Shown here: piece by piece, positions 2,824-31,561 of the stretch
Layout: every line of letters begins with the position of its first letter
Position numbering within the stretch: position 1 is the first letter of the stretch
Sequence record: NC_129898.1
Reading direction: 5' to 3' (one strand)
Source of the DNA: a phage
Length of the DNA: 64,000 nt
Program-made: the position numbers and the translations under genes
The notes under the pieces: generated by a model
Told to the model about the DNA's origin: nothing
The model's database searches: none
The model's input: only the letters and a program-made list of their open reading frames with translations

Positions 2824-3612
2824 TTACTCGGAAACAGGAGTCCAAATATGATTTGCACGATCCTCAATAAGATTGAGTGCAATCTGACGGCCTAACCCGG
2901 AACGAACGACATCGTCTGGACTATCAAAGCTAATCATTCCAACCTCAGGATCTGGATGACGCGTAAAGAAATCTGTCACCCATGCAAGGCCAGATTTACC
3001 AGGGATGTCACGTTGGCTGTTATCGCCCATAATTACAAGGGTGGCCTGATCAGAGATCCTTGTGATAATTGACAACATTTCTTCAGGATTGGTTTGCTGT
3101 GCTTCATCAATAAGGACAAAGCATCGTTCATCAAAACTACGACCACGAATGCTTTCAACCTCACAAATCTCGATACGGCTGTTCTGACCGTCTCCAAGCA
3201 TTGCTGCAAAAGCACCTTTGCCAACACGACGACAAATCGTGTCCATCATGCTTCTAAGATAGGGCCACAGTTTCTGCATTGCATTTCCAGGTTTAAATCC
3301 TGAAGTCTTTCCTGTCTGAACGTAAGGGCGTGCAACAATGATCTTATCAATCTCGTTCTTGCGCAGAAGATCCCCTGCATATGCAGATGCCATGAATGTC
3401 TTACCGGATCCAAACACACCGTTTACAATGATAATCTTACGCGACCCTAGATAATCAAGATACTTTTGCTGCTTTTTATTCATTGGTCGGAGAGCTGGAG
3501 CGGTGTGCTCTCGTTCGTCAGCAAATTTTTCAGCAGCCTTACGCAGGCGATCAGATTTGCGAGCCTCTCTAGCTTCATCACGCATGCGTTTTGTTTCTTT
3601 AGCTCGACCCAT
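2824..3612 (-). CDS. phoH: PhoH-like ATPase
   Basis: Walker A 'GVFGSGKT', Walker B 'VLIDEAQ' and PhoH-typical C-terminal region. Confidence 0.85.
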   Translation of the reverse strand: MGRAKETKRMRDEAREARKSDRLRKAAEKFADEREHTAPALRPMNKKQQKYLDYLGSRKIIIVNGVFGSGKTFMASAYAGDLLRKNEIDKIIVARPYVQTGKTSGFKPGNAMQKLWPYLRSMMDTICRRVGKGAFAAMLGDGQNSRIEICEVESIRGRSFDERCFVLIDEAQQTNPEEMLSIITRISDQATLVIMGDNSQRDIPGKSGLAWVTDFFTRHPDPEVGMISFDSPDDVVRSGLGRQIALNLIEDRANHIWTPVSE

Positions 3613-4823: not shown

Positions 4824-5786
4824 TCAGCAACCACAACTTCCGTAGTGCTTAACCCGTTCTATAACCTCCGCTTGCTTACCTTTATTGTAAGGACGGGAGT
4901 TTGGACTGGACAGATACCCGGATACACGTCTAATCACACTGATCGTTCCCTCTTCATGGTTTCCACACTCTGGGCATACAAAGCCTTTAGCTGTTGCACT
5001 GAACTCACCAGAGAATCCACACTTAAGACATTTATCCACAGGCTGGTTAATACCAAAATACATAATGTGTTTATATCCGAAATCAACAAGAGCTTCCAAA
5101 GCATCTAAGTTGTTTTTCAGATTTGGTGTCTCTATGTACCCAATGTTGCCACCAGAGGAGATCATAGCAAAACCTTCCTCATACTTCCACTTATCAAAAG
5201 GCGAGCTATTGATCCATACTGGCTGATGGAAACTGTTGGTGAGGTATTCATGCTCGTGCTTCAACACTTCTGGGTATTCACGATCCAGACAGGTTGCAGC
5301 TTTATAGCATAAACTCTCAGAAGGTGTGCCGTACAAGCTAAATGCTAGTCCACTTTCCTTCTTGTATCGCTCACAAGCATCTTTCATGTGCTGAAGGATT
5401 CCAAGAGCTAAAGCCTTGTCACCCTCTCTGCCCAAAATCTGACAGGTTTCATACACACCAATATACCCAATACTGATGGAAGCGTACCCGTCATAGAAGA
5501 GTTTATCGATACTCTCTTCAGGATCCAGGCTAGCAAGAGCTCCTTCACACCACATGATAGGGTTATGCCCTGCCTTTGTTCCTTTTAGACGGTTAACTCT
5601 TACAAGGTGAGCCTCATATGCCAAATCCAAATATTCGTCAAGAACTGCAAAGAAATCAACACCTTCCGTTTTAGCTTTTGCCGCAATCATTGGTAGGTTA
5701 AGGCTAACAACACCCAAGTTGAATCTGCCAAGGTATTTCTCCTCGCCTGTTACAGGGTCGCTATATTTCGATAAGAAACTTCTACA
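4824..5786 (-). CDS. nrdD: anaerobic ribonucleotide reductase, exon 2 (C-terminal part)
   Basis: Begins 'CRSFLS'; C-terminal zinc ribbon CLKC...CPEC and glycyl-radical motif 'RVSGYL'; in frame with exon 1 after removing 5787-6548. Confidence 0.7.
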   Translation of the reverse strand, partial: CRSFLSKYSDPVTGEEKYLGRFNLGVVSLNLPMIAAKAKTEGVDFFAVLDEYLDLAYEAHLVRVNRLKGTKAGHNPIMWCEGALASLDPEESIDKLFYDGYASISIGYIGVYETCQILGREGDKALALGILQHMKDACERYKKESGLAFSLYGTPSESLCYKAATCLDREYPEVLKHEHEYLTNSFHQPVWINSSPFDKWKYEEGFAMISSGGNIGYIETPNLKNNLDALEALVDFGYKHIMYFGINQPVDKCLKCGFSGEFSATAKGFVCPECGNHEEGTISVIRRVSGYLSSPNSRPYNKGKQAEVIERVKHYGSCGC

Positions 5787-25328: not shown

Positions 25329-25679
25329 TCAGTAGATGTTTTGTTTAATTTCTATTCCAAACTTTTTAAACGAGTCAGCAGCAAGCATGAATTTACGAGC
25401 CGCTGATGGGTTAGAAGTATGCACGAAAATCTTCACGTTGTCAACTACAGGAGGCTTACCAAATACAAATTTTTCCTCCAGTATGCAGAAGCAATCGTAT
25501 CCTTCAAAAATTTCTCCCAAGTCGCTGTCAAAATGCCACTCAGAAACGCGTCTATATAGCTTTCCCTTGTCATTAATGAAATCCATGAACTCAGAAGAAC
25601 TCTTTAGCCAAAGAGCGTCTGGGAGCCCATAATTTGACGGATCTCTCAAATCATCTAGCCACACAATCAGCTTCTTCAT
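25329..25679 (-). CDS. hypothetical protein
   Basis: 116-aa ORF; its ATG overlaps the RNA ligase stop (ATGA). Confidence 0.45.
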   Translation of the reverse strand: MKKLIVWLDDLRDPSNYGLPDALWLKSSSEFMDFINDKGKLYRRVSEWHFDSDLGEIFEGYDCFCILEEKFVFGKPPVVDNVKIFVHTSNPSAARKFMLAADSFKKFGIEIKQNIY

Positions 25680-26611
25680 TGCATATAGTCCTCGTTGTGG
25701 AAATAGCAGTCAAGTATCTCACGGCGTTCCTGCTCCAGGAGGCAATTCCACACATCTTCTGTGTAGTTTCTACGAATGAAGTTTACCATGCCGTAAAACT
25801 CTTCGTCAACACGTTTAAAGATATCATCATCCCAAATCTTCCAAGCTCTACCCCTCATTACGACCTTCCGTGCCAGATAGTAGGGAGACTTGATCTTTAG
25901 TTGCAGGTCATAAGGGTAGTAAGGCTTACGGATCATATACCCTTCGCCCCTTGTTTCTGCAGCCAACTCTTTTGCATAGCTGAACGGAATTTCACGCACA
26001 GTGTGAGGACGTTTTGCACCAAGGTATTTGGCAATACCGTCTAAAGCTGCTTCTGGTAGCATTATTCCAGAATCATTGTATCGGCAACCGATCAAATAGG
26101 CACCATGATCTTCCTGAACAATATGCGGGTCTGAAGGGTGACAAATTTCAAACATGAATGTCATGTTTTCATGGCCCATAACCTTCTTGATAAGATCTAA
26201 ATTACCACATTGCTCCTGGATTGTTTCCTTTGCGAGGTTACAATATGGAGAATCAAGAGACCCTGTTGTTGAGAACAACAGTTCACCTTTGTGAGATGAT
26301 ACCACACCAAGGAATCCGTTCTTTTTCTCTACCGCCGTCACAAGTTTATTGTCAGGCAGGTTGGTGGAATTTTCTCCCAAGTTAAACACTTTTGTGAAGG
26401 GCCATGCCACAACATTTCCTTCATTACCGACAACAATTCCTCGGCACTCTAGTAAACGCGGAGACAAATGCCATAGATTGTTGTAAAATACTTTTCTGGC
26501 ATATTTATAGATCTTTAACCCAAGATCTGGATAATACCGACTGGTTACAAGACCTTTATTCACTAAATCATCTGCATTAAAATACTTCATCATACATTCC
26601 TCGTTTGTCAT
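25676..26611 (-). CDS. RNA ligase (Rnl1-like)
   Basis: N-terminal 'LLECRGIVV' matches the T4 RnlA 'ALECRGIMF' region; 'EKKNGFLG' nucleotidyltransferase motif I variant. Confidence 0.6.
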   Translation of the reverse strand: MTNEECMMKYFNADDLVNKGLVTSRYYPDLGLKIYKYARKVFYNNLWHLSPRLLECRGIVVGNEGNVVAWPFTKVFNLGENSTNLPDNKLVTAVEKKNGFLGVVSSHKGELLFSTTGSLDSPYCNLAKETIQEQCGNLDLIKKVMGHENMTFMFEICHPSDPHIVQEDHGAYLIGCRYNDSGIMLPEAALDGIAKYLGAKRPHTVREIPFSYAKELAAETRGEGYMIRKPYYPYDLQLKIKSPYYLARKVVMRGRAWKIWDDDIFKRVDEEFYGMVNFIRRNYTEDVWNCLLEQERREILDCYFHNEDYMQ

Positions 26612-26654
26612 TTTGTCACTCTATCTTGCCACACAAATAAACTAGTGTCAACAC

Positions 26655-26683
26655 TTGAAATGAACAAAAGAGTTATGTATACT
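26655..26683 (+). promoter_or_regulatory. sigma70-like promoter (TTGAAA-17-TATACT)
   Basis: Hexamers with 17-nt spacer about 30 nt before the kinase gene. Confidence 0.4.
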
Positions 26684-26711
26684 ACCATTAAAATTAAAAC
26701 GGAGGATTACT

Positions 26712-27122
26712 ATGTCTAAAATGCTATATATCGTGCGTGGTCTACCAGGTTCTGGCAAATCAACACTGGCAAATGCACTATCTTTAGAGGGGCTGTACCC
26801 ACATTTTGAGAACGACATGTTCTGGTACGACGACGATGGAAATTACAACTGGGATGCAAGTAAAGTAACACTTGCAGCAAAATGGTGCAAAGATAACGTA
26901 GAAGATATGATGCGTATGGGATACGACCGTGTCGTGGTAAGTAATACGTTTACAAAAGAAAAACATGTGCAAGAATATGTTGACATGGCAATCAGTCATG
27001 GGTATAGTTATACTGTGATCGTGGTTGAAAACCGCCACGGTAATAAGAGCATTCATGATGTTCCAGATAGGGTTGTGGACCGTATGGAGCGTGAGCTTAA
27101 AAACTGCATTAAACTAAAATGA
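26712..27122 (+). CDS. polynucleotide 5'-kinase (P-loop)
   Basis: 'YIVRGLPGSGKSTLA' Walker A and 'VVVSNTF' resembling the T4 Pnk kinase domain. Confidence 0.6.
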   Translation: MSKMLYIVRGLPGSGKSTLANALSLEGLYPHFENDMFWYDDDGNYNWDASKVTLAAKWCKDNVEDMMRMGYDRVVVSNTFTKEKHVQEYVDMAISHGYSYTVIVVENRHGNKSIHDVPDRVVDRMERELKNCIKLK

Positions 27123-27129
27123 GGGATGT

Positions 27130-27684
27130 ATGAAATATTTTGTAACAAGCGATACACACTTTCTCCACCAGCGAGTCATGGAGTTTGATTCATGTCAAAA
27201 ACACAGATCTCAGTATGATCACAATCTTGACAGTATGAACGAAGGAATCATTGCAGAGTGGAACTCTGTTGTATCACCAGAAGACACTGTGTTTCACTTG
27301 GGCGATATTGCATGCACTAAGGATAAGAATATCAACAACTTATTTCCAGATATTCTAAATATGTTGAACGGACATATTATTCTTGTTCGTGGTAACCATG
27401 ACACAAGGACGACTGTCAGAATTATGAAAGAGTTCGGTAATGAGGTTGTAGATTATTACGAGCTTCGCCACAACAAGAATTTGATCTGTATGAGCCATTA
27501 CCAGTTTGCAAAGTGGAACAGAAAGCCTCACGGATCAGTCCAACTGTTCGGTCATGCTCACGGAACCACACAGCAGTTGTTTGGCAGGCAGTTTGATGTC
27601 GGTTGGGATGTGTGGGGGAGACTCTTACCATTAGAAGAGGCATACCGTATTGCAATGAGTCTTGCTATTGACAGCGGGGAGTAA
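27130..27684 (+). CDS. calcineurin-like metallophosphoesterase
   Basis: 'VTSDTHF', 'HLGDIA' and 'VRGNHD' metal-binding motifs. Confidence 0.8.
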   Translation: MKYFVTSDTHFLHQRVMEFDSCQKHRSQYDHNLDSMNEGIIAEWNSVVSPEDTVFHLGDIACTKDKNINNLFPDILNMLNGHIILVRGNHDTRTTVRIMKEFGNEVVDYYELRHNKNLICMSHYQFAKWNRKPHGSVQLFGHAHGTTQQLFGRQFDVGWDVWGRLLPLEEAYRIAMSLAIDSGE

Positions 27685-27731
27685 TCCCTGCTATTTTAAA
27701 GAAAATTGCCACACAAGGAGAATCAGGAGAT

Positions 27732-28082
27732 ATGAAAGAGGAGGATAAGCTGCCATACCTTAAAGTCCCATTTGGAATACTGTCTATGTCAAAAGTTTTG
27801 AATGATACAACTGGAGAGGTTGTTGTTCTTGACTTGTATGACAAGATCGTATACTGCTACCTGCACAACTGGTATAAGCTTGGAGGAAATTCACGCTTCA
27901 CACCCAGCACAAGGAAAATTGCAGCAGATGTTGGGATAAAGAAAACAAAAGCAGCAGCGTGCGTTAAAACTTTAGAATGTGCAGGAGTGGTTGAAATATC
28001 CACACAAGGGAGAGGTAAAAGATGCACATTTTCCAAAGTTTTGCCACCAGAAGAGGTTATTCGAATGTCAACAACTGGTTAG
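27732..28082 (+). CDS. putative winged-helix DNA-binding protein
   Basis: 'STRKIAADVGIKKTKAAACVKTLECAGVVEI' has an HTH-like pattern; immediately upstream of the iteron array. Confidence 0.45.
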   Translation: MKEEDKLPYLKVPFGILSMSKVLNDTTGEVVVLDLYDKIVYCYLHNWYKLGGNSRFTPSTRKIAADVGIKKTKAAACVKTLECAGVVEISTQGRGKRCTFSKVLPPEEVIRMSTTG

Positions 28083-28156
28083 ACCAGTAAAAACTTAAAT
28101 ATCTGTACTATAAGGATTCGTATGTTTTATGTCCATCCAAGAGCAGAGGGTAGTAA

Positions 28157-28238
28157 CTGTCCGTGATACGGACACTACTGTCCGTCACGCGGACACATCT
28201 GCCCGTAATACGGACACTAACTGTCCGCAATACGGACA
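28157..28238. repeat. four tandem 18-bp palindromic iterons (CTGTCCGT-NNN-ACGGACA)
   Basis: Copies at 28157-28174, 28178-28195, 28199-28216 and 28221-28238, spaced 21-22 bp start to start. Confidence 0.85.
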
Positions 28239-28380
28239 CATAAAGAATATAACTAAAATAACTAAATAATAAAAAAAAATAAAAGATCTAGTAATTATGG
28301 TACTAAAGTACATATACTTAACTTATGTAGAATATACTAGATCCTAAGTACCATGTTTTAAATTTATTACTTACTATTGG

Positions 28381-28705
28381 TAGTGTCGGCCCTTCATTGG
28401 CACTCGCCTACGAGGGGCGAGATGCCGGGCCTCCATAGTGCACACAATGACAGGAGTGCATACATGCAGGACTGTTAACATGTGTGGGAGCGAAGCTATA
28501 GCGCAGGCCAAAGGCCGAGCACTAATGTGGACCACCGACGAAAGCTTGCCAGCGCCGTAAGGAGTCGGTTGAGAGCCTCCCGCGCGAGTTTAGTTAAAGT
28601 TTATGTGTGGAAACGGACAGGAAGGCCCCTAAATCGCCACACAGCTGCGTAAACTATACCAAGTAAGGCAATCGCACCAGTTTGATAGAAAAGCTCGTTA
28701 CAAAG
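28381..28705 (+). ncRNA. candidate structured non-coding RNA, class unknown
   Basis: GC-rich ORF-free region with many local helices (GGCCC..GGGCC, CTCGCC/GGCGAG, GGCCaaaGGCC, CCGAC..GTCGG, TGTGTGG..CCACACA) and GNRA-like loops. Confidence 0.25.
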
Positions 28706-28746
28706 CGATACAGTGAGTTTTTCTATAACTTGAAGAGGAGGCAGTT

Positions 28747-29325
28747 ATGAGTTCACGCAAAGATGACCGCGAAAAGATTGCAAAACGTTATCAGAATGAA
28801 GAACAGATGGAGAAAACTTTCAAGTGGAAGCCAGGTTTCCAGCGTAATCATTCTAACGCTCGTGATCGTAAGCATCCGGATAAGTGGCTAACACCGCCAA
28901 ATGATGGCATGCAGGTTGGTGATGAGAAGGAGCTATCGCCTGGAAAAGATGGCAACTACATTCGCACTAAGGACGCTGGTCCAAAGGATGACAGCTATCT
29001 TGTAGATAAGGTTCTTGATGGTATTGATGTAGATGTTGACACCACACGGAACTTTTTTCTTGGGTGGTATCGCACAGGTTTTTTCGACATCAAGGCCATT
29101 CGTCGTGTTTGTGATATTAAAAAGTCTGCATATGATGACGACTCGTTACATCGCACCCTGAGGCAATATTCAGAAAGATATGGTCATCCGGTTATCACTC
29201 TTGACGATGTTGACGAAGTGATGTATCATGCAGAGGTTGTTGCAGGCAGATTTGGTGATGCATATCTTGATATCCTTTCTGCAAACGATGAGGTAATGTT
29301 GAATAAGATTTACTACGAACGTTGA
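28747..29325 (+). CDS. hypothetical protein
   Basis: 192-aa ORF with GAGGAGG RBS. Confidence 0.55.
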   Translation: MSSRKDDREKIAKRYQNEEQMEKTFKWKPGFQRNHSNARDRKHPDKWLTPPNDGMQVGDEKELSPGKDGNYIRTKDAGPKDDSYLVDKVLDGIDVDVDTTRNFFLGWYRTGFFDIKAIRRVCDIKKSAYDDDSLHRTLRQYSERYGHPVITLDDVDEVMYHAEVVAGRFGDAYLDILSANDEVMLNKIYYER

Positions 29326-29335
29326 GGAGAGCTTA

Positions 29336-29524
29336 ATGAACAATCCGGTAGCAAAGAACTGTAATAAGTTCAACAAGTCTGCAATTCACACTGACAGGAA
29401 AAAGAGCTGGTCACCGGACATTGACGAGGAGCTTGAGAATTACTTTGAAGATCTGGTTACCAATGCAGGTGAGGTTGCGATTAAAGAATACGCAGACAGG
29501 AGGGATAAGGCCGGAATCTGTTGA
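29336..29524 (+). CDS. hypothetical protein
   Basis: 62-aa ORF. Confidence 0.35.
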   Translation: MNNPVAKNCNKFNKSAIHTDRKKSWSPDIDEELENYFEDLVTNAGEVAIKEYADRRDKAGIC

Positions 29525-29549
29525 CAAAAATAATGTTACCTGATAAGAT
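29521..29549 (+). promoter_or_regulatory. sigma70-like promoter (TTGACA-17-TAAGAT)
   Basis: Consensus -35 with 17-nt spacer; a second extended -10 'TGATACAAT' lies at 29572-29580. Confidence 0.45.
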
Positions 29550-29600
29550 CTGCAATATGATGTGATACAATTTTAACTTACGAGGTCTACAGGTAATGCT

Positions 29601-29843
29601 ATGTTTAAGGTTAAGCTCGTTTTCCGTTCCATGAATGAGGATTATTTAGAAGATGAAGGTGAATTTCGTGCACTAGATGATGCAATAGATTTTGCCAACG
29701 ACTTAGCTTGTATGAACACGGGTTATGGGTTGTGTTGTTGGGACGGTGGTATTCAGATCGGTGATAGCAAAATCTTCTACTTCTACCCTGAGCCGGATAA
29801 CAAACAAATTAAGTATGTTTTATTTATTTGTGCTTTACAATGA
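29601..29843 (+). CDS. hypothetical protein
   Basis: 80-aa ORF. Confidence 0.4.
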   Translation: MFKVKLVFRSMNEDYLEDEGEFRALDDAIDFANDLACMNTGYGLCCWDGGIQIGDSKIFYFYPEPDNKQIKYVLFICALQ

Positions 29844-29844
29844 G

Positions 29845-30130
29845 GTTGTTTTCGTGTATCATGATGAATATCCAATTTAAAGATGAATTTGATGGCTTTA
29901 TCTCCGGATGCTTTGAAACAGGGTTCGGAGAATGCTGAGTTCCCATTAGAGGGCTTGATAGTGCACCACACTTAAAATGGTAGGGGCAGCCAGCACATGA
30001 CGATGTGACCCCAGCCAACCTGTAATAAGGTCGAGCCAAAGCGCGGTAATGGGTCTCTGGTAACCCACTTGTTGGGTCTTGTGGTCCAGGACGCTGGGCA
30101 AGTCGCAGGGAATACCACCCTGCGGCGAAC
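29845..30130 (+). ncRNA. candidate structured non-coding region, class unknown
   Basis: GC-rich; only overlapping multi-frame antisense ORFs; helices such as CGCAGGG-aatacca-CCCTGCG and GGGG..ACAT-gacg-ATGT..CCCC. Confidence 0.2.
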
Positions 30131-30159
30131 TTGACAATCAGTATTTGCCGTGATAAAAT
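30131..30159 (+). promoter_or_regulatory. sigma70 promoter (TTGACA-17-TAAAAT with TG extension)
   Basis: Near-consensus hexamers; the track ORF start at 30131 falls inside it, so the gene is started at 30188. Confidence 0.55.
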
Positions 30160-30187
30160 CCACCTATCACGTGATAATGGAGGAAAC

Positions 30188-30526
30188 ATGGCGGATACAA
30201 CTAAAAAGCGTCGCCGTAGAGGCAGACCTCTGAAAGAGGAGTCCAACGCCATTCAGCTAGAGAAGAACATTCTTGATATGAAGGAATCTTTTATAGCGAT
30301 GGTTCCAGAAGCTCACAAAGTTTTAAGAGAGCTGATGTTGGATCCGAAAACCAAGCAAAATATTCGTCAAAGCATTGCAGAGTATGTTCTTGATAAGGCA
30401 GACCGAATGCAGGAAGAATATGATGAGATGTTTGGTGAAGAGGAAGAGGTGGTAGTAGAAGAGGCTGAAAAACCAGCACCTTTTATGCCATTTACCACAG
30501 AAATACAGCCTGTTAGCAATAGCTAA
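30188..30526 (+). CDS. hypothetical protein with basic N-terminus (possibly DNA-binding)
   Basis: Started at MADTTKKRRRRGRP with GGAGG RBS; acidic C-terminus. Confidence 0.5.
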   Translation: MADTTKKRRRRGRPLKEESNAIQLEKNILDMKESFIAMVPEAHKVLRELMLDPKTKQNIRQSIAEYVLDKADRMQEEYDEMFGEEEEVVVEEAEKPAPFMPFTTEIQPVSNS

Positions 30527-30535
30527 AATATTTTC

Positions 30536-30564
30536 TTGACAAACTTTGCTTAACAGTGTAATAT
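30536..30564 (+). promoter_or_regulatory. sigma70 promoter (TTGACA-17-TAATAT) ahead of the tRNA cluster
   Basis: Consensus -35 and good -10 about 60 nt before the first tRNA. Confidence 0.5.
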
Positions 30565-30622
30565 TGTAAACATGGTCTCCCACCTTTTCTGGCGGCTAAG
30601 GTGTAAAAGAAAGCCACCCAGT

Positions 30623-30697
30623 GCCCTGTTAGCTTAGTGGATAAAGCAGCGGCCTTCTAAGCCGTTGACACTGGTTCGAGTCCAGTACGGGGTGCCA
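30623..30697 (+). tRNA. tRNA-Arg (anticodon TCT)
   Basis: Hand-folded cloverleaf: acceptor GCCCTGT/ACGGGGT, anticodon loop CTTCTAA, T-loop GGTTCGAGTCC, encoded CCA. Confidence 0.75.
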
Positions 30698-30827
30698 AGT
30701 TCTTTTTAATGTAGCTTACTTTAGCAGAGTAAATCTTCGGCAAGTGGCGGTAACCACTTTACCGATACCTCATAGTTAGTGGTGAGAACACTAGCTATTT
30801 TAAAAAGAATTTAAATATTAGTATTTA

Positions 30828-30915
30828 GGTGAGTTAATTCCGTAGGGGTAGCGGGGCAGACTGTAAATCTGTTATCATTGCGATTCGGGTGGTTCGACTC
30901 CATCACTCACCACCA
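30828..30915 (+). tRNA. tRNA-Tyr (anticodon GTA)
   Basis: Acceptor GGTGAGT/ACTCACC, anticodon arm CAGACTGTAAATCTG as in E. coli tRNA-Tyr, long variable arm, encoded CCA. Confidence 0.8.
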
Positions 30916-31029
30916 AATTTATATTTTTAAATGCATAAATCATACAGATAATGGCATTGATATTTATCGTCGTTTATACTAGTCACTAACTGCTCGAAAA
31001 TCAGTGTCATTATCAGTATTGTTTATAAA

Positions 31030-31120
31030 AGAGGGTAGGGAGCAATGGTGCTCAAGCGGTCTTGAAAACCGTCCCGTTGAGGATGACTCGATGATGGTTC
31101 GATTCCATTATCCTCTGCCA
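31030..31120 (+). tRNA. tRNA-Ser (anticodon TGA)
   Basis: Acceptor AGAGGGT/ATCCTCT, anticodon loop CTTGAAA, 20-nt variable arm, T-loop GGTTCGATTCC, encoded CCA. Confidence 0.75.
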
Positions 31121-31218
31121 TATTGTTGACCTTGTAATTAAGCGAAAGCCGGAAGCAGAACCGGATTATCAAATGTTACAGTCGTCATCGCCGACTAGCC
31201 ACATGGTCAACATATTGC

Positions 31219-31315
31219 GCTAGGTAAGCCCTTTGGCAAGGGCGAGGATTTTTAATCCTGAAAATAGACGAGGTAGTCGTTGAATACATAGATGGTTCGA
31301 TTCCATCACCTAGCA
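31219..31315 (+). tRNA. tRNA-Lys-like (anticodon TTT) with atypically long variable region
   Basis: Acceptor GCTAGGT/ACCTAGC and anticodon arm GAGGA-TTTTTAA-TCCTG are canonical, but about 30 nt separate the anticodon stem from the T arm and CCA is not fully encoded. Confidence 0.4.
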
Positions 31316-31321
31316 CCTTTT

Positions 31322-31397
31322 GCTGATGTAGCACAATTGGCAGTGCAATTGATTTGTAATCAATAGGTTGCAGGTTCAAGTCCTGCCATCAGCACCA
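31322..31397 (+). tRNA. tRNA-Thr (anticodon TGT)
   Basis: Acceptor GCTGATG/CATCAGC, anticodon arm ATTGA-TTTGTAA-TCAAT, T-loop GGTTCAAGTCC, encoded CCA. Confidence 0.85.
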
Positions 31398-31398
31398 T

Positions 31399-31473
31399 GG
31401 CCCTGTAGCTGGAAGGTTCAAGCAAGCGACTCATAATCGCCAGACGGTGGTTCAATTCCACCCAGGGCCACCA
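31399..31473 (+). tRNA. tRNA-Met or tRNA-Ile2 (anticodon CAT)
   Basis: Acceptor GGCCCTG/CAGGGCC, anticodon loop CTCATAA, T-loop GGTTCAATTCC, encoded CCA. Confidence 0.75.
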
Positions 31474-31484
31474 AATTATAAATA

Positions 31485-31561
31485 CTCCGCGTAGCTCAGC
31501 TTGGTAGAGCGCCTGATTTGGGATCAGGAGGTCGAGTGTTCGAATCACTCCGTGGAGACCA
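31485..31561 (+). tRNA. tRNA-Pro (anticodon TGG)
   Basis: Acceptor CTCCGCG/CGTGGAG, anticodon arm CCTGA-TTTGGGA-TCAGG, T-loop GTGTTCGAATCAC, encoded CCA. Confidence 0.8.

Follow-up and report, generated by a model that had tools for sequence, protein, structure and literature searches.

A structured non-coding element beside an origin-like region is common to Vequintavirus phages and satellite-like plasmids

Structured non-coding elements placed beside a replication origin or at the start of an operon are of a known general kind. The element described here lies in a 64,000-nucleotide (nt) stretch of phage DNA (sequence record NC_129898.1), hereafter called the window, and extends from position 28381 to 28746. 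It is conserved, does not encode protein, pairs with itself on the + strand and belongs to no known family; it is common to the phage genus Vequintavirus and to a set of satellite-like plasmids, and lies beside an origin-like region. Among described systems, ColE1 RNA II and the IncB and IncI-alpha rep leaders are likewise multi-helix structures of several hundred nucleotides, located next to an origin or rep gene in a fixed orientation, and theirs are pseudoknot-capable hairpins that control replication. These plasmid leader RNAs have no sequence or Rfam similarity to our element, which adjoins an apparent iteron/initiator origin, a feature that ColE1 does without. Moreover, the phage element lies downstream of its initiator gene, not upstream, and the phage shows no evident antisense RNA gene.

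A second group comprises the single-strand initiation (ssi) signals and their like: RSF1010 ssiA and ssiB, PriA pas, G4 oric, rolling-circle sso and the f1 minus-strand origin. These too are strand-specific clusters of hairpins beside an origin; they are conserved through their pairing, and the replication machinery that uses them comes in trans. They are simpler, however, at 40-300 nt, and show no sequence similarity to the element, which also has GNRA-like loops, U·G pairs that are conserved and unpaired blocks that do not vary. The P2/P4 cos site and the HK022 put site offer a third comparison, since in each one non-coding element of a helper is copied by a satellite, and put is a folded leader RNA of a long operon. 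However, cos is a duplex site that needs no hairpins, put consists of two stem-loops (~70 nt) that follow a promoter directly, and neither resembles the element in sequence; the helper-satellite relation proposed here is itself putative. Finally, GOLLD, ROOL and HEARO were likewise GC-rich, multi-helix phage RNAs free of open reading frames (ORFs), with no function known at discovery. None of their Rfam models scores above noise here, and the present element is smaller and limited to one phage genus and its satellites. No description of the element or of the plasmid family was found in the literature searched, so that the element family, its helper-satellite distribution and the satellite family all appear to be undescribed there.

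The region was originally singled out, from its letters and ORFs, as the most GC-rich stretch of the window (28381-28705), free of sizeable ORFs and dense in short helices. GC content confirmed the choice: the top 325-nt stretch of the window is 28383-28707 (0.538 versus 0.436 overall) and the top 200-nt stretch is 28387-28586 (0.60). The region has matches of 90-99% identity in 118 phage records. Every record belongs to Vequintavirus, the rV5/FV3-like myoviruses of E. coli, and EPFV3-03/2025 and FV3 are the closest. Two more lineages, L002 (on the same contig as L021) and L019, which came from IMG/VR, a metagenome scan and a Logan look-up, carry the element at ~83% identity. Conservation begins abruptly at ~28381-28386, and both lineages are unrelated to the window 5′ of this edge. 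It then continues into the Shine-Dalgarno sequence and the ATG at 28747. The start first proposed therefore coincides with a sharp conservation edge, whereas the proposed end falls short, since conservation runs on to 28746. The flanks are those expected, with iterons and AT-rich DNA on one side and a strong ribosome-binding site on the other.

The element is non-coding. Four to five of its six frames are open, as expected because the DNA is GC-rich, and its ORFs are of at most 56 amino acids (aa) and bear no coding signature. The longest candidate, annotated ORF78 in rV5, differs from L002 at 10/11/11 sites by codon position, compared with 22/10/68 in the downstream 192-aa gene; the third-position excess versus L002 is absent in all three ORFs of the element. 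In the ORF78 frame 19/24 changed codons are non-synonymous, and variable sites across the genus are spread over codon positions as 10/13/12, versus 23/13/61 in the 192-aa gene. L002 has a truncated version of the same ORF, and Phage 206 a frameshifted one. A protein read from an unusual start, which would have undone the original prediction, is not what the GTG-initiated ORF78 provides. The sequence is nonetheless constrained: divergence from L002 amounts to 0.134 (28381-28530), 0.097 (28531-28592), 0.325 (28593-28675) and 0.070 (28676-28746), against 0.354 at third codon positions. The element is under purifying selection of a strength like that on codon positions 1+2. Within the genus, nucleotide diversity (pi) is lower in the AT-rich spacer (0.025) than in the element (0.043).

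Sensitive blastn searches against E. coli genomes and plasmids returned partial matches to the element in circular E. coli 'plasmids' of 13.2-13.7 kb and in one of 39.6 kb, NZ_CP043822.1 (39,610 bp), which consists of three tandem satellite units. The plasmids encode a major capsid protein, a tape-measure protein, a tail-completion protein, another tail protein and a small resolvase-type helix-turn-helix (HTH) protein, as well as a 288-306-aa HTH_36 protein matching lambda-O-like initiator families. The protein products of two of their tail genes share 48-55% identity with those of genes in the window. Given their capsid and tail genes and lambda-O-like initiator, the 13-14 kb plasmids look like satellites of these phages. 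With the initiator protein as query, a search returned 103 clusters (43-99% identity), nearly every one of which lies on a 13-14 kb contig of E. coli, Shigella or E. albertii. Members of the family (L026-L031 and L034-L041; e.g., NZ_CP178698.1, NZ_CP020521.1 and CP134895.1) hold ~2.3 kb without annotated coding sequence (CDS). No polymerase, helicase or primase is annotated in the satellites and no such family was found among the 10 genes scanned; similarly, no terminase gene is annotated or was seen among the genes scanned. When the whole Vequintavirus genome was compared with the plasmids (this window together with FV3 1-28700 and 92000-136947), the element was the only non-coding DNA in common. 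In the satellites it has the same orientation as in the phage, between their own iterons and AT-rich DNA and a rep-morphogenesis operon, and is present without any homologue of the 192-aa gene.

Compensatory base changes, which the original prediction had named as its test, were found with these homologues in two helices, P2 (2 pairs) and B1 (3 pairs; Table 1). In satellite CP020521, P2 reads UGUCACUCUCCU..GGGGAGAGAUGACG, versus UGGCACUCGCCU..GGGCGAGAUGCCG in the phage, and all four stem substitutions amount to two G-C to U-A exchanges (2/12 pairs). P2 alignment cells are paired at 98.8%, versus 27-66% when the partner strand is slid. Phage stems of P2 are invariant and the loop variable; its U·G pair at each end is common to phage and satellite. 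In B1, the phage ACCGAC/GUCGGU becomes GCUGCC/GGCAGC in type-1 satellites, so that 3/6 pairs are altered on both sides (AU>GC, CG>UA, AU>CG), and the 24-nt loop is unchanged. All B1 cells are paired (100%; slid controls, 29-52%), and 0/500 shuffles reach the observed covariation score. The loop, GAAAGCUUGCCAGCGCCG(U/G)AAGGA, is invariant except for a single base, the N of a GNRA-like GUAA/GGAA. Pairing is thus kept by compensatory substitutions, the generic mark of a structured RNA.

Elsewhere, hairpins have been exchanged wholesale while their positions were kept. UGUGUGG and AAUGUGGA are retained in phages and all satellites, and the hairpin between them consists of three unrelated sequences in three lineages. 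The CCCCUAAAU hairpin similarly keeps its position with four different stems (GGC/GCC, GCC/GGC, AGGCC/GGCCU and GGCCC/GGGCC). In type-2 satellites (CP134895, L034, L036 and L038-L040), an unrelated 8-bp hairpin, GUCCGGAU..AUCCGGAC, occupies the B1 site after AAUGUGGA, and is followed by a simple hairpin, GCG..GGA / UCC..CGC, homologous to S2. This succession of a B1-equivalent and an S2-like hairpin suggests that B1 and S2 of the phage may form an H-type pseudoknot; S2 itself has 97-98% of cells paired and zero covariation. The 3′ hairpin has another stem in satellites (CUCUAAA/UUUAGAG) around a similar AAAUCGCGUUA core; in the phage the Shine-Dalgarno sequence AGAGGAGG (28734-41) follows it at a distance of 8 nt. 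Deletion has also left pairing intact, as rV5 and Murica lack 18 nt (28444-28461) of the variable-length hairpin and a shorter perfect hairpin remains. P1, in which one pair is U-A, U-G or C-G across the genus with the variation following clades, is a weakly supported candidate for the helix closing the 5′ domain, local GGCCC/GGGCC pairing being an alternative to it. Every helix and loop first listed is present at its given position. The TGTGTGG..CCACACA helix, however, falls in the least constrained part, and most relatives do not keep it.

Each copy of the element holds 2-4 UGUGUGG motifs. CCACACA/TGTGTGG is also the most enriched 7-mer in the satellites, with 19 copies versus 1.3 expected in the whole of L027, a number that 0/200 shuffles reach. 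In Vequintavirus DNA it is 2-3 fold enriched (22 versus 10 in the window), and it is not enriched in Seunavirus or Klebsiella-phage loci. The UGUGUGG motifs may be related to this CCACACA heptamer, 13-fold enriched across satellite genomes. The sequence TTGCCACACAA occurs at 26626 and 27706, each time just 3′ of a promoter-like site.

Table 1. Positions in the window of the element, its parts and the adjoining features
Feature	Position	Strand	Remarks
116-aa HTH_36 protein gene	27732..28082	+	Pfam HTH_36/DUF6945; context, outside the element
Four palindromic iterons, TGTCCG-N5-CGGACA	28158-74, 28179-95, 28200-16, 28222-38		Within 28154..28239
AT-rich spacer, ~140 nt	28240..28380		Interleaved inverted repeats; conserved in the genus, unrelated in L002 and L019
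Conserved structured element, whole	28381..28746	+	Sharp 5′ conservation edge in L002/L019; kept in 118 phage records; 5′ to 3′: three-way-junction domain, B1/S2 hairpin-pseudoknot (putative), variable middle, 3′ hairpin beside Shine-Dalgarno
P1, 5′ strand UAGUGUCGGCC	28381..28391	+	Predicted to pair with GGCCGAGCACUA (28513-28524) and close the 5′ domain; RNAalifold
GGCCC / GGGCC	28388-92 / 28427-31	+	Outer helix; encloses CTCGCC 28403-08 / GGCGAG 28416-21
P2 hairpin, 12 bp	28398..28427	+	28398-28409 with 28415-28427; A28422 bulged; loop ACGAG
Variable-length hairpin	28440..28488	+	CACACA/CAUACA with UGUGUG
UGUGUGG, apical hairpin and AAUGUGGA	28481..28531	+	UGUGUGG 28481-87; AGC-GAA-GCU 28489-97; AAUGUGGA 28524-31
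GGCCAAAGGCC	28506-16	+	Helix listed earlier, present
B1 hairpin	28534..28569	+	ACCGAC 28534-39 with GUCGGU 28564-69
CCGAC / GTCGG	28535-39 / 28564-68	+	Helix listed earlier, present (within B1)
Tetraloop-like GAAA; GTAA	28540-43; 28557-60	+	Listed earlier, present
S2 helix	28552..28585	+	GCGC 28552-55 with GCGC 28582-85; GGA 28561-63 with UCC 28578-80
Middle part	28593..28675	+	Least constrained; near-neutral divergence, 0.325
TGTGTGG / CCACACA	28604-10 / 28637-43	+	Helix listed earlier, present
Small hairpin in middle part	GGC 28624-26 with GCC 28636-38	+	Loop holds conserved CCCCUAAAU (28626-34)
3′ hairpin	28685..28726	+	AUAGAAAAGCUC 28685-96 with GAGUUUUUCUAU 28715-26; RNAalifold
192-aa gene	28747..29325	+	Annotated without function; no Pfam match; PHROG 12226 (unknown function)

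The absence of a known family was established by scanning with covariance models. Rfam 15 at gathering threshold returned only six tRNAs from the whole window; at E<=10 on 28200-28800 the best match was rli43, with 16.6 bits against a threshold of 100, and the satellite region gave no match. ARAGORN placed tRNA/transfer-messenger RNA (tmRNA) genes only at 30623-31561, none in the element. The Rfam families covered include riboswitches, RNase P, tmRNA and ribozymes, none of which had been recognised by eye, as well as 6S RNA, group I/II introns and T-box RNAs. A likeness of CCGGGCCUCCAUAG to E. coli RNase P RNA, seen by eye, was rejected as the RNase P models do not score. A pseudo-ToxI in the rV5-related phage phiTE (PMC3475682) prompted a test for a type III toxin-antitoxin ToxI-like RNA; no internal tandem repeat was found in the sequence, alignments or folds of the element, and a repeat finder applied to 28080-28400 reported only the four iterons. 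ToxI-like RNAs consist of tandem direct repeats of ~36 nt ahead of a ToxN-like gene; the protein encoded downstream here, of 192 aa, falls in no family.

Searches for relatives indicated a narrow phage distribution. With both flanking proteins, tblastn matches were confined to the genus. Protein and DNA scans of IMG/VR returned one contig only, the metagenome scan four loci without new diversity, and a scan of GTDB genomes no element. The metagenome scan missed the satellites because its pattern held phage-specific bases. A homologue search with the 192-aa protein identified one 50%-identical relative (L018), which has a 60-nt upstream gap and no element, and Seunavirus and Klebsiella relatives also lack the element. 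Hits by nhmmer on Seunavirus LNA4 and Klebsiella phage Iguana (E 0.013-0.03), in a 118-nt gene gap, were judged spurious.

On the 5′ side of the element lies what looks like a lambda-O-type origin. The 116-aa protein encoded there matches PHROG 12838 'replication initiation protein', carries that name in RefSeq, and has weak matches to phrog_270/428/8102, which the satellite initiator also matches; HTH_36 and several 'replication initiation' PHROGs are thus common to both proteins. It resembles the N-terminal origin-binding domain of a lambda-O-type initiator. Downstream of its gene come the four palindromic iterons, spaced at 21-22 bp and the only such sites in the 64 kb window, then the AT-rich spacer, with inverted repeats pairing 28285-93 with 28335-43 and 28298-308 with 28344-54. 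The origin reading was adopted because of these four dyad iterons, the AT-rich DNA and the O-like HTH_36 protein. Ori-lambda likewise combines an O-like HTH_36 protein with an AT-rich stretch and four palindromic repeats spaced two turns apart; that origin lies, however, inside the O gene, no 350-nt structured element follows, and the phage protein here, at 116 aa, corresponds to the N-terminal domain only. A reading of TGTGGA motifs as DnaA boxes was set aside, as they have 2-3 mismatches to the consensus.

The same arrangement recurs with different parts. L002 and L019 have another HTH gene and other palindromic repeats at the iteron position, and each satellite has its own repeats, then an AT-rich stretch, then the element. 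The order of iterons, AT-rich DNA and element is common to phage, L002/L019 and satellites, and in phage and satellites an operon on the same strand follows. The element is always found on the AT-rich side of the iterons, in one orientation, while iterons and initiators differ. Beside the apparent origin and with its orientation fixed, it is located as ssi and sso signals are.

On balance, we lean towards a new, lineage-restricted structured RNA module of ~350 nt, encoded on the + strand at the origin-proximal start of a rightward operon. An RNA would fit an element of this size, with unpaired blocks that do not vary and with U·G and GNRA features. Across 18 phage sequences, the modelled helices include 75 G·U cells and 1 A·C cell, an excess that favours the + strand as the folding strand. 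The 5′ 150 nt fold better than shuffled sequences, with z -3.7 for the single sequence and -3.4 on a six-sequence alignment with column shuffling. As to transcription, the nearest upstream sigma-70-like promoter is at 27668-27697, no + strand terminator was found in 27600-30700, and the 192-aa gene has a ribosome-binding site and no promoter of its own. If this promoter serves the 192-aa gene, the element must be transcribed, because no terminator intervenes. An antisense RNA, considered because of minus-strand terminator-like hairpins in a satellite, is unsupported in the phage and conflicts with the G·U evidence.

Several observations weigh against an RNA. Folding of the whole 325 nt is only modestly better than that of shuffles (z -1.9 for the + strand) and almost equal for the minus strand (-1.5), and parts other than the 5′ 150 nt, including the 3′ hairpin, are not significant singly. 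Since the helices had been predicted on the + strand, the G·U tally is in part circular. The covariation term of RNAalifold on phages only is ~0 (-0.09), which is uninformative because these sequences are 82-99% identical, and the compensatory events come from few independent lineages, so that the overall fold, above all in P1, S2 and the 3′ hairpin, amounts to a model at present. No conserved promoter was found directly upstream of the element. In the satellites, an intrinsic terminator (3013-3033) follows the upstream genes and a sigma-70-like promoter (5278-5306) lies between element and operon, and the element may therefore be outside the leader of that operon. No Vequintavirus transcriptome was found in the literature searched. 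Finally, adjacency to the origin fits a role at the DNA level equally well. Of the structured RNA of unknown class first proposed, the conserved structured nucleic acid of no known family stands; its assignment to RNA is qualified, as the same pairing could serve single-stranded DNA (ssDNA) at the adjacent origin.

Such an ssDNA role, which we consider unlikely without finding it far-fetched, would have the O-like initiator melt the AT-rich DNA and the + strand hairpins act as a priming or primosome-loading signal for the host or helper replisome. Satellites would keep the signal since they have their own initiator and iterons and borrow the rest of the replication machinery. This would account for an element conserved while iterons differ by lineage, and always set, in a single orientation, on the AT-rich flank of an iteron origin, with an O-like initiator in phage and satellite alike. 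It also agrees with the apparent lack of replication enzymes in the satellites noted above and with the tandem trimer of the NZ_CP043822 record, and DNA hairpins predict compensatory changes equally. GCGAAGC, furthermore, is an unusually stable DNA mini-hairpin. On the other hand, known ssi or pas signals are smaller and less elaborate than this element, which spans 350 nt and has at least five helices together with several unpaired motifs that do not vary. Its conserved terminal U·G (T·G) pairs and GNRA-type loop are more in keeping with RNA, and type-2 satellites are still plasmids though they have no invariant B1 loop. To our knowledge, lambda-type origins require no such signal, and we know of no single-stranded replication phase for these phages.

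Unbroken conservation into the Shine-Dalgarno sequence, which the 3′ hairpin abuts, could instead reflect a 5′ leader specific to the 192-aa gene, either a riboswitch or a translational operator, in which GGCAGUU, immediately ahead of the ATG, would be a possible partner for AGCUUGCC (28544-51). This is very unlikely: four variants create mismatches in the proposed anti-start pairing, the 192-aa homologue in L018 has no element, and the satellites carry the element without the gene and therefore show it to be independent of that gene. A duplex DNA site common to helper and satellite, such as a pac or cos site for the helper terminase, is highly improbable as well. It would explain why this is the only non-coding sequence that the satellites have in common with the phage genome, given that no terminase gene was seen in them, and a large terminase gene does lie 4.5 kb downstream in L019. 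Compensatory changes that keep intra-strand pairing are not expected of such a site, however, nor are hairpins swapped for unrelated sequences at the same positions, and the most conserved block is missing from type-2 satellites. That the region encodes one or more small proteins, for instance ORF78 (28482-28652, GTG start, 56 aa), which rV5 and some BASEL records list as a hypothetical protein, would agree with several indels being multiples of three but is scarcely credible in view of the flat codon-position changes, the broken ORFs and the lack of a Pfam match.

Should the element be an RNA module, it would be transcribed rightward within an early transcript. It would then fold into a 5′ junction domain (P1, P2, P3), followed by B1 with its invariant 24-nt loop and a possible pseudoknot with S2, and further 3′ into a variable spacer with the CCCCUAAAU loop and the 3′ hairpin next to the Shine-Dalgarno sequence. 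We suggest, tentatively, that the folded RNA might act in cis as a docking platform for a host- or helper-encoded factor of phage-infected cells. Docking would tie the activity of the origin or initiator either to the priming or activation of replication or to the expression of the operon downstream, and the same module in a satellite would let it plug into the programme of the helper. It is possible, rather than probable, that a new RNA class links a lytic phage genus to its own plasmid-borne satellite family (>100 initiator clusters in E. coli, Shigella and E. albertii). Satellites would on this account copy an origin-proximal RNA, recognised by a helper or host factor, to synchronise their replication or expression with infection.

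In the window, the element is preceded by genes for an RNA ligase (minus strand), a polynucleotide kinase, a phosphoesterase and the 116-aa HTH protein, then by the repeats and AT-rich DNA; it is followed by the 192-aa gene, small genes and a tRNA cluster (30623-31561). Genes from 26712 onward are all on the + strand. The RNA-repair set (T4-type RNA ligase, AAA_33 polynucleotide kinase and metallophosphoesterase; 25676-27684) is directly upstream of the origin-like region and ~3 kb from the tRNA cluster. Within the cluster, calls differ between programs, 30828-30912 being reported by Rfam only and 31030-31120 by ARAGORN only. At 31219-31317, ARAGORN reported a tRNA of 97-99 nt with a four-base anticodon (atcc), which scores 37.5 bits with the Rfam tRNA model and whose counterpart is labelled tRNA-Lys in a BASEL record.

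A second GC-rich stretch without convincing ORFs (29845-30187; GC 0.52-0.59) is also a candidate structured RNA. It is 92% identical in L002 and L019, while third codon positions differ by 35%, and lies just upstream of a promoter-like site at 30131. It has no Rfam match and a single-sequence z of -1.5, and is not in the satellites. In FV3, 2.3 kb without annotated CDS (104328-106594; L033 12329-14595) separate oppositely oriented gene blocks. Among the database records, 18 titled 'Campylobacter phage' are Vequintavirus genomes at ~94% identity, and the 'plasmid' CP057073.1 (137,565 bp) is one too, pointing to either mislabelling or a carrier state.

These results would add a covariation-supported structured element to well-used E. 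coli phages, including rV5, FV3, the BASEL vequintaviruses (Bas48-59; PMC13250531) and many therapy candidates, in a region whose present annotation is blank or consists of spurious small ORFs. They mark a probable lambda-O-type origin in Vequintavirus, for which no mapped replication start was found in the literature. They also expose a large, apparently undescribed family of plasmids with capsid and tail genes, and the single non-coding element that these have in common with the phages provides a handle on the link between satellites and a lytic helper. Whether the folded form is RNA or ssDNA, either answer would be informative.

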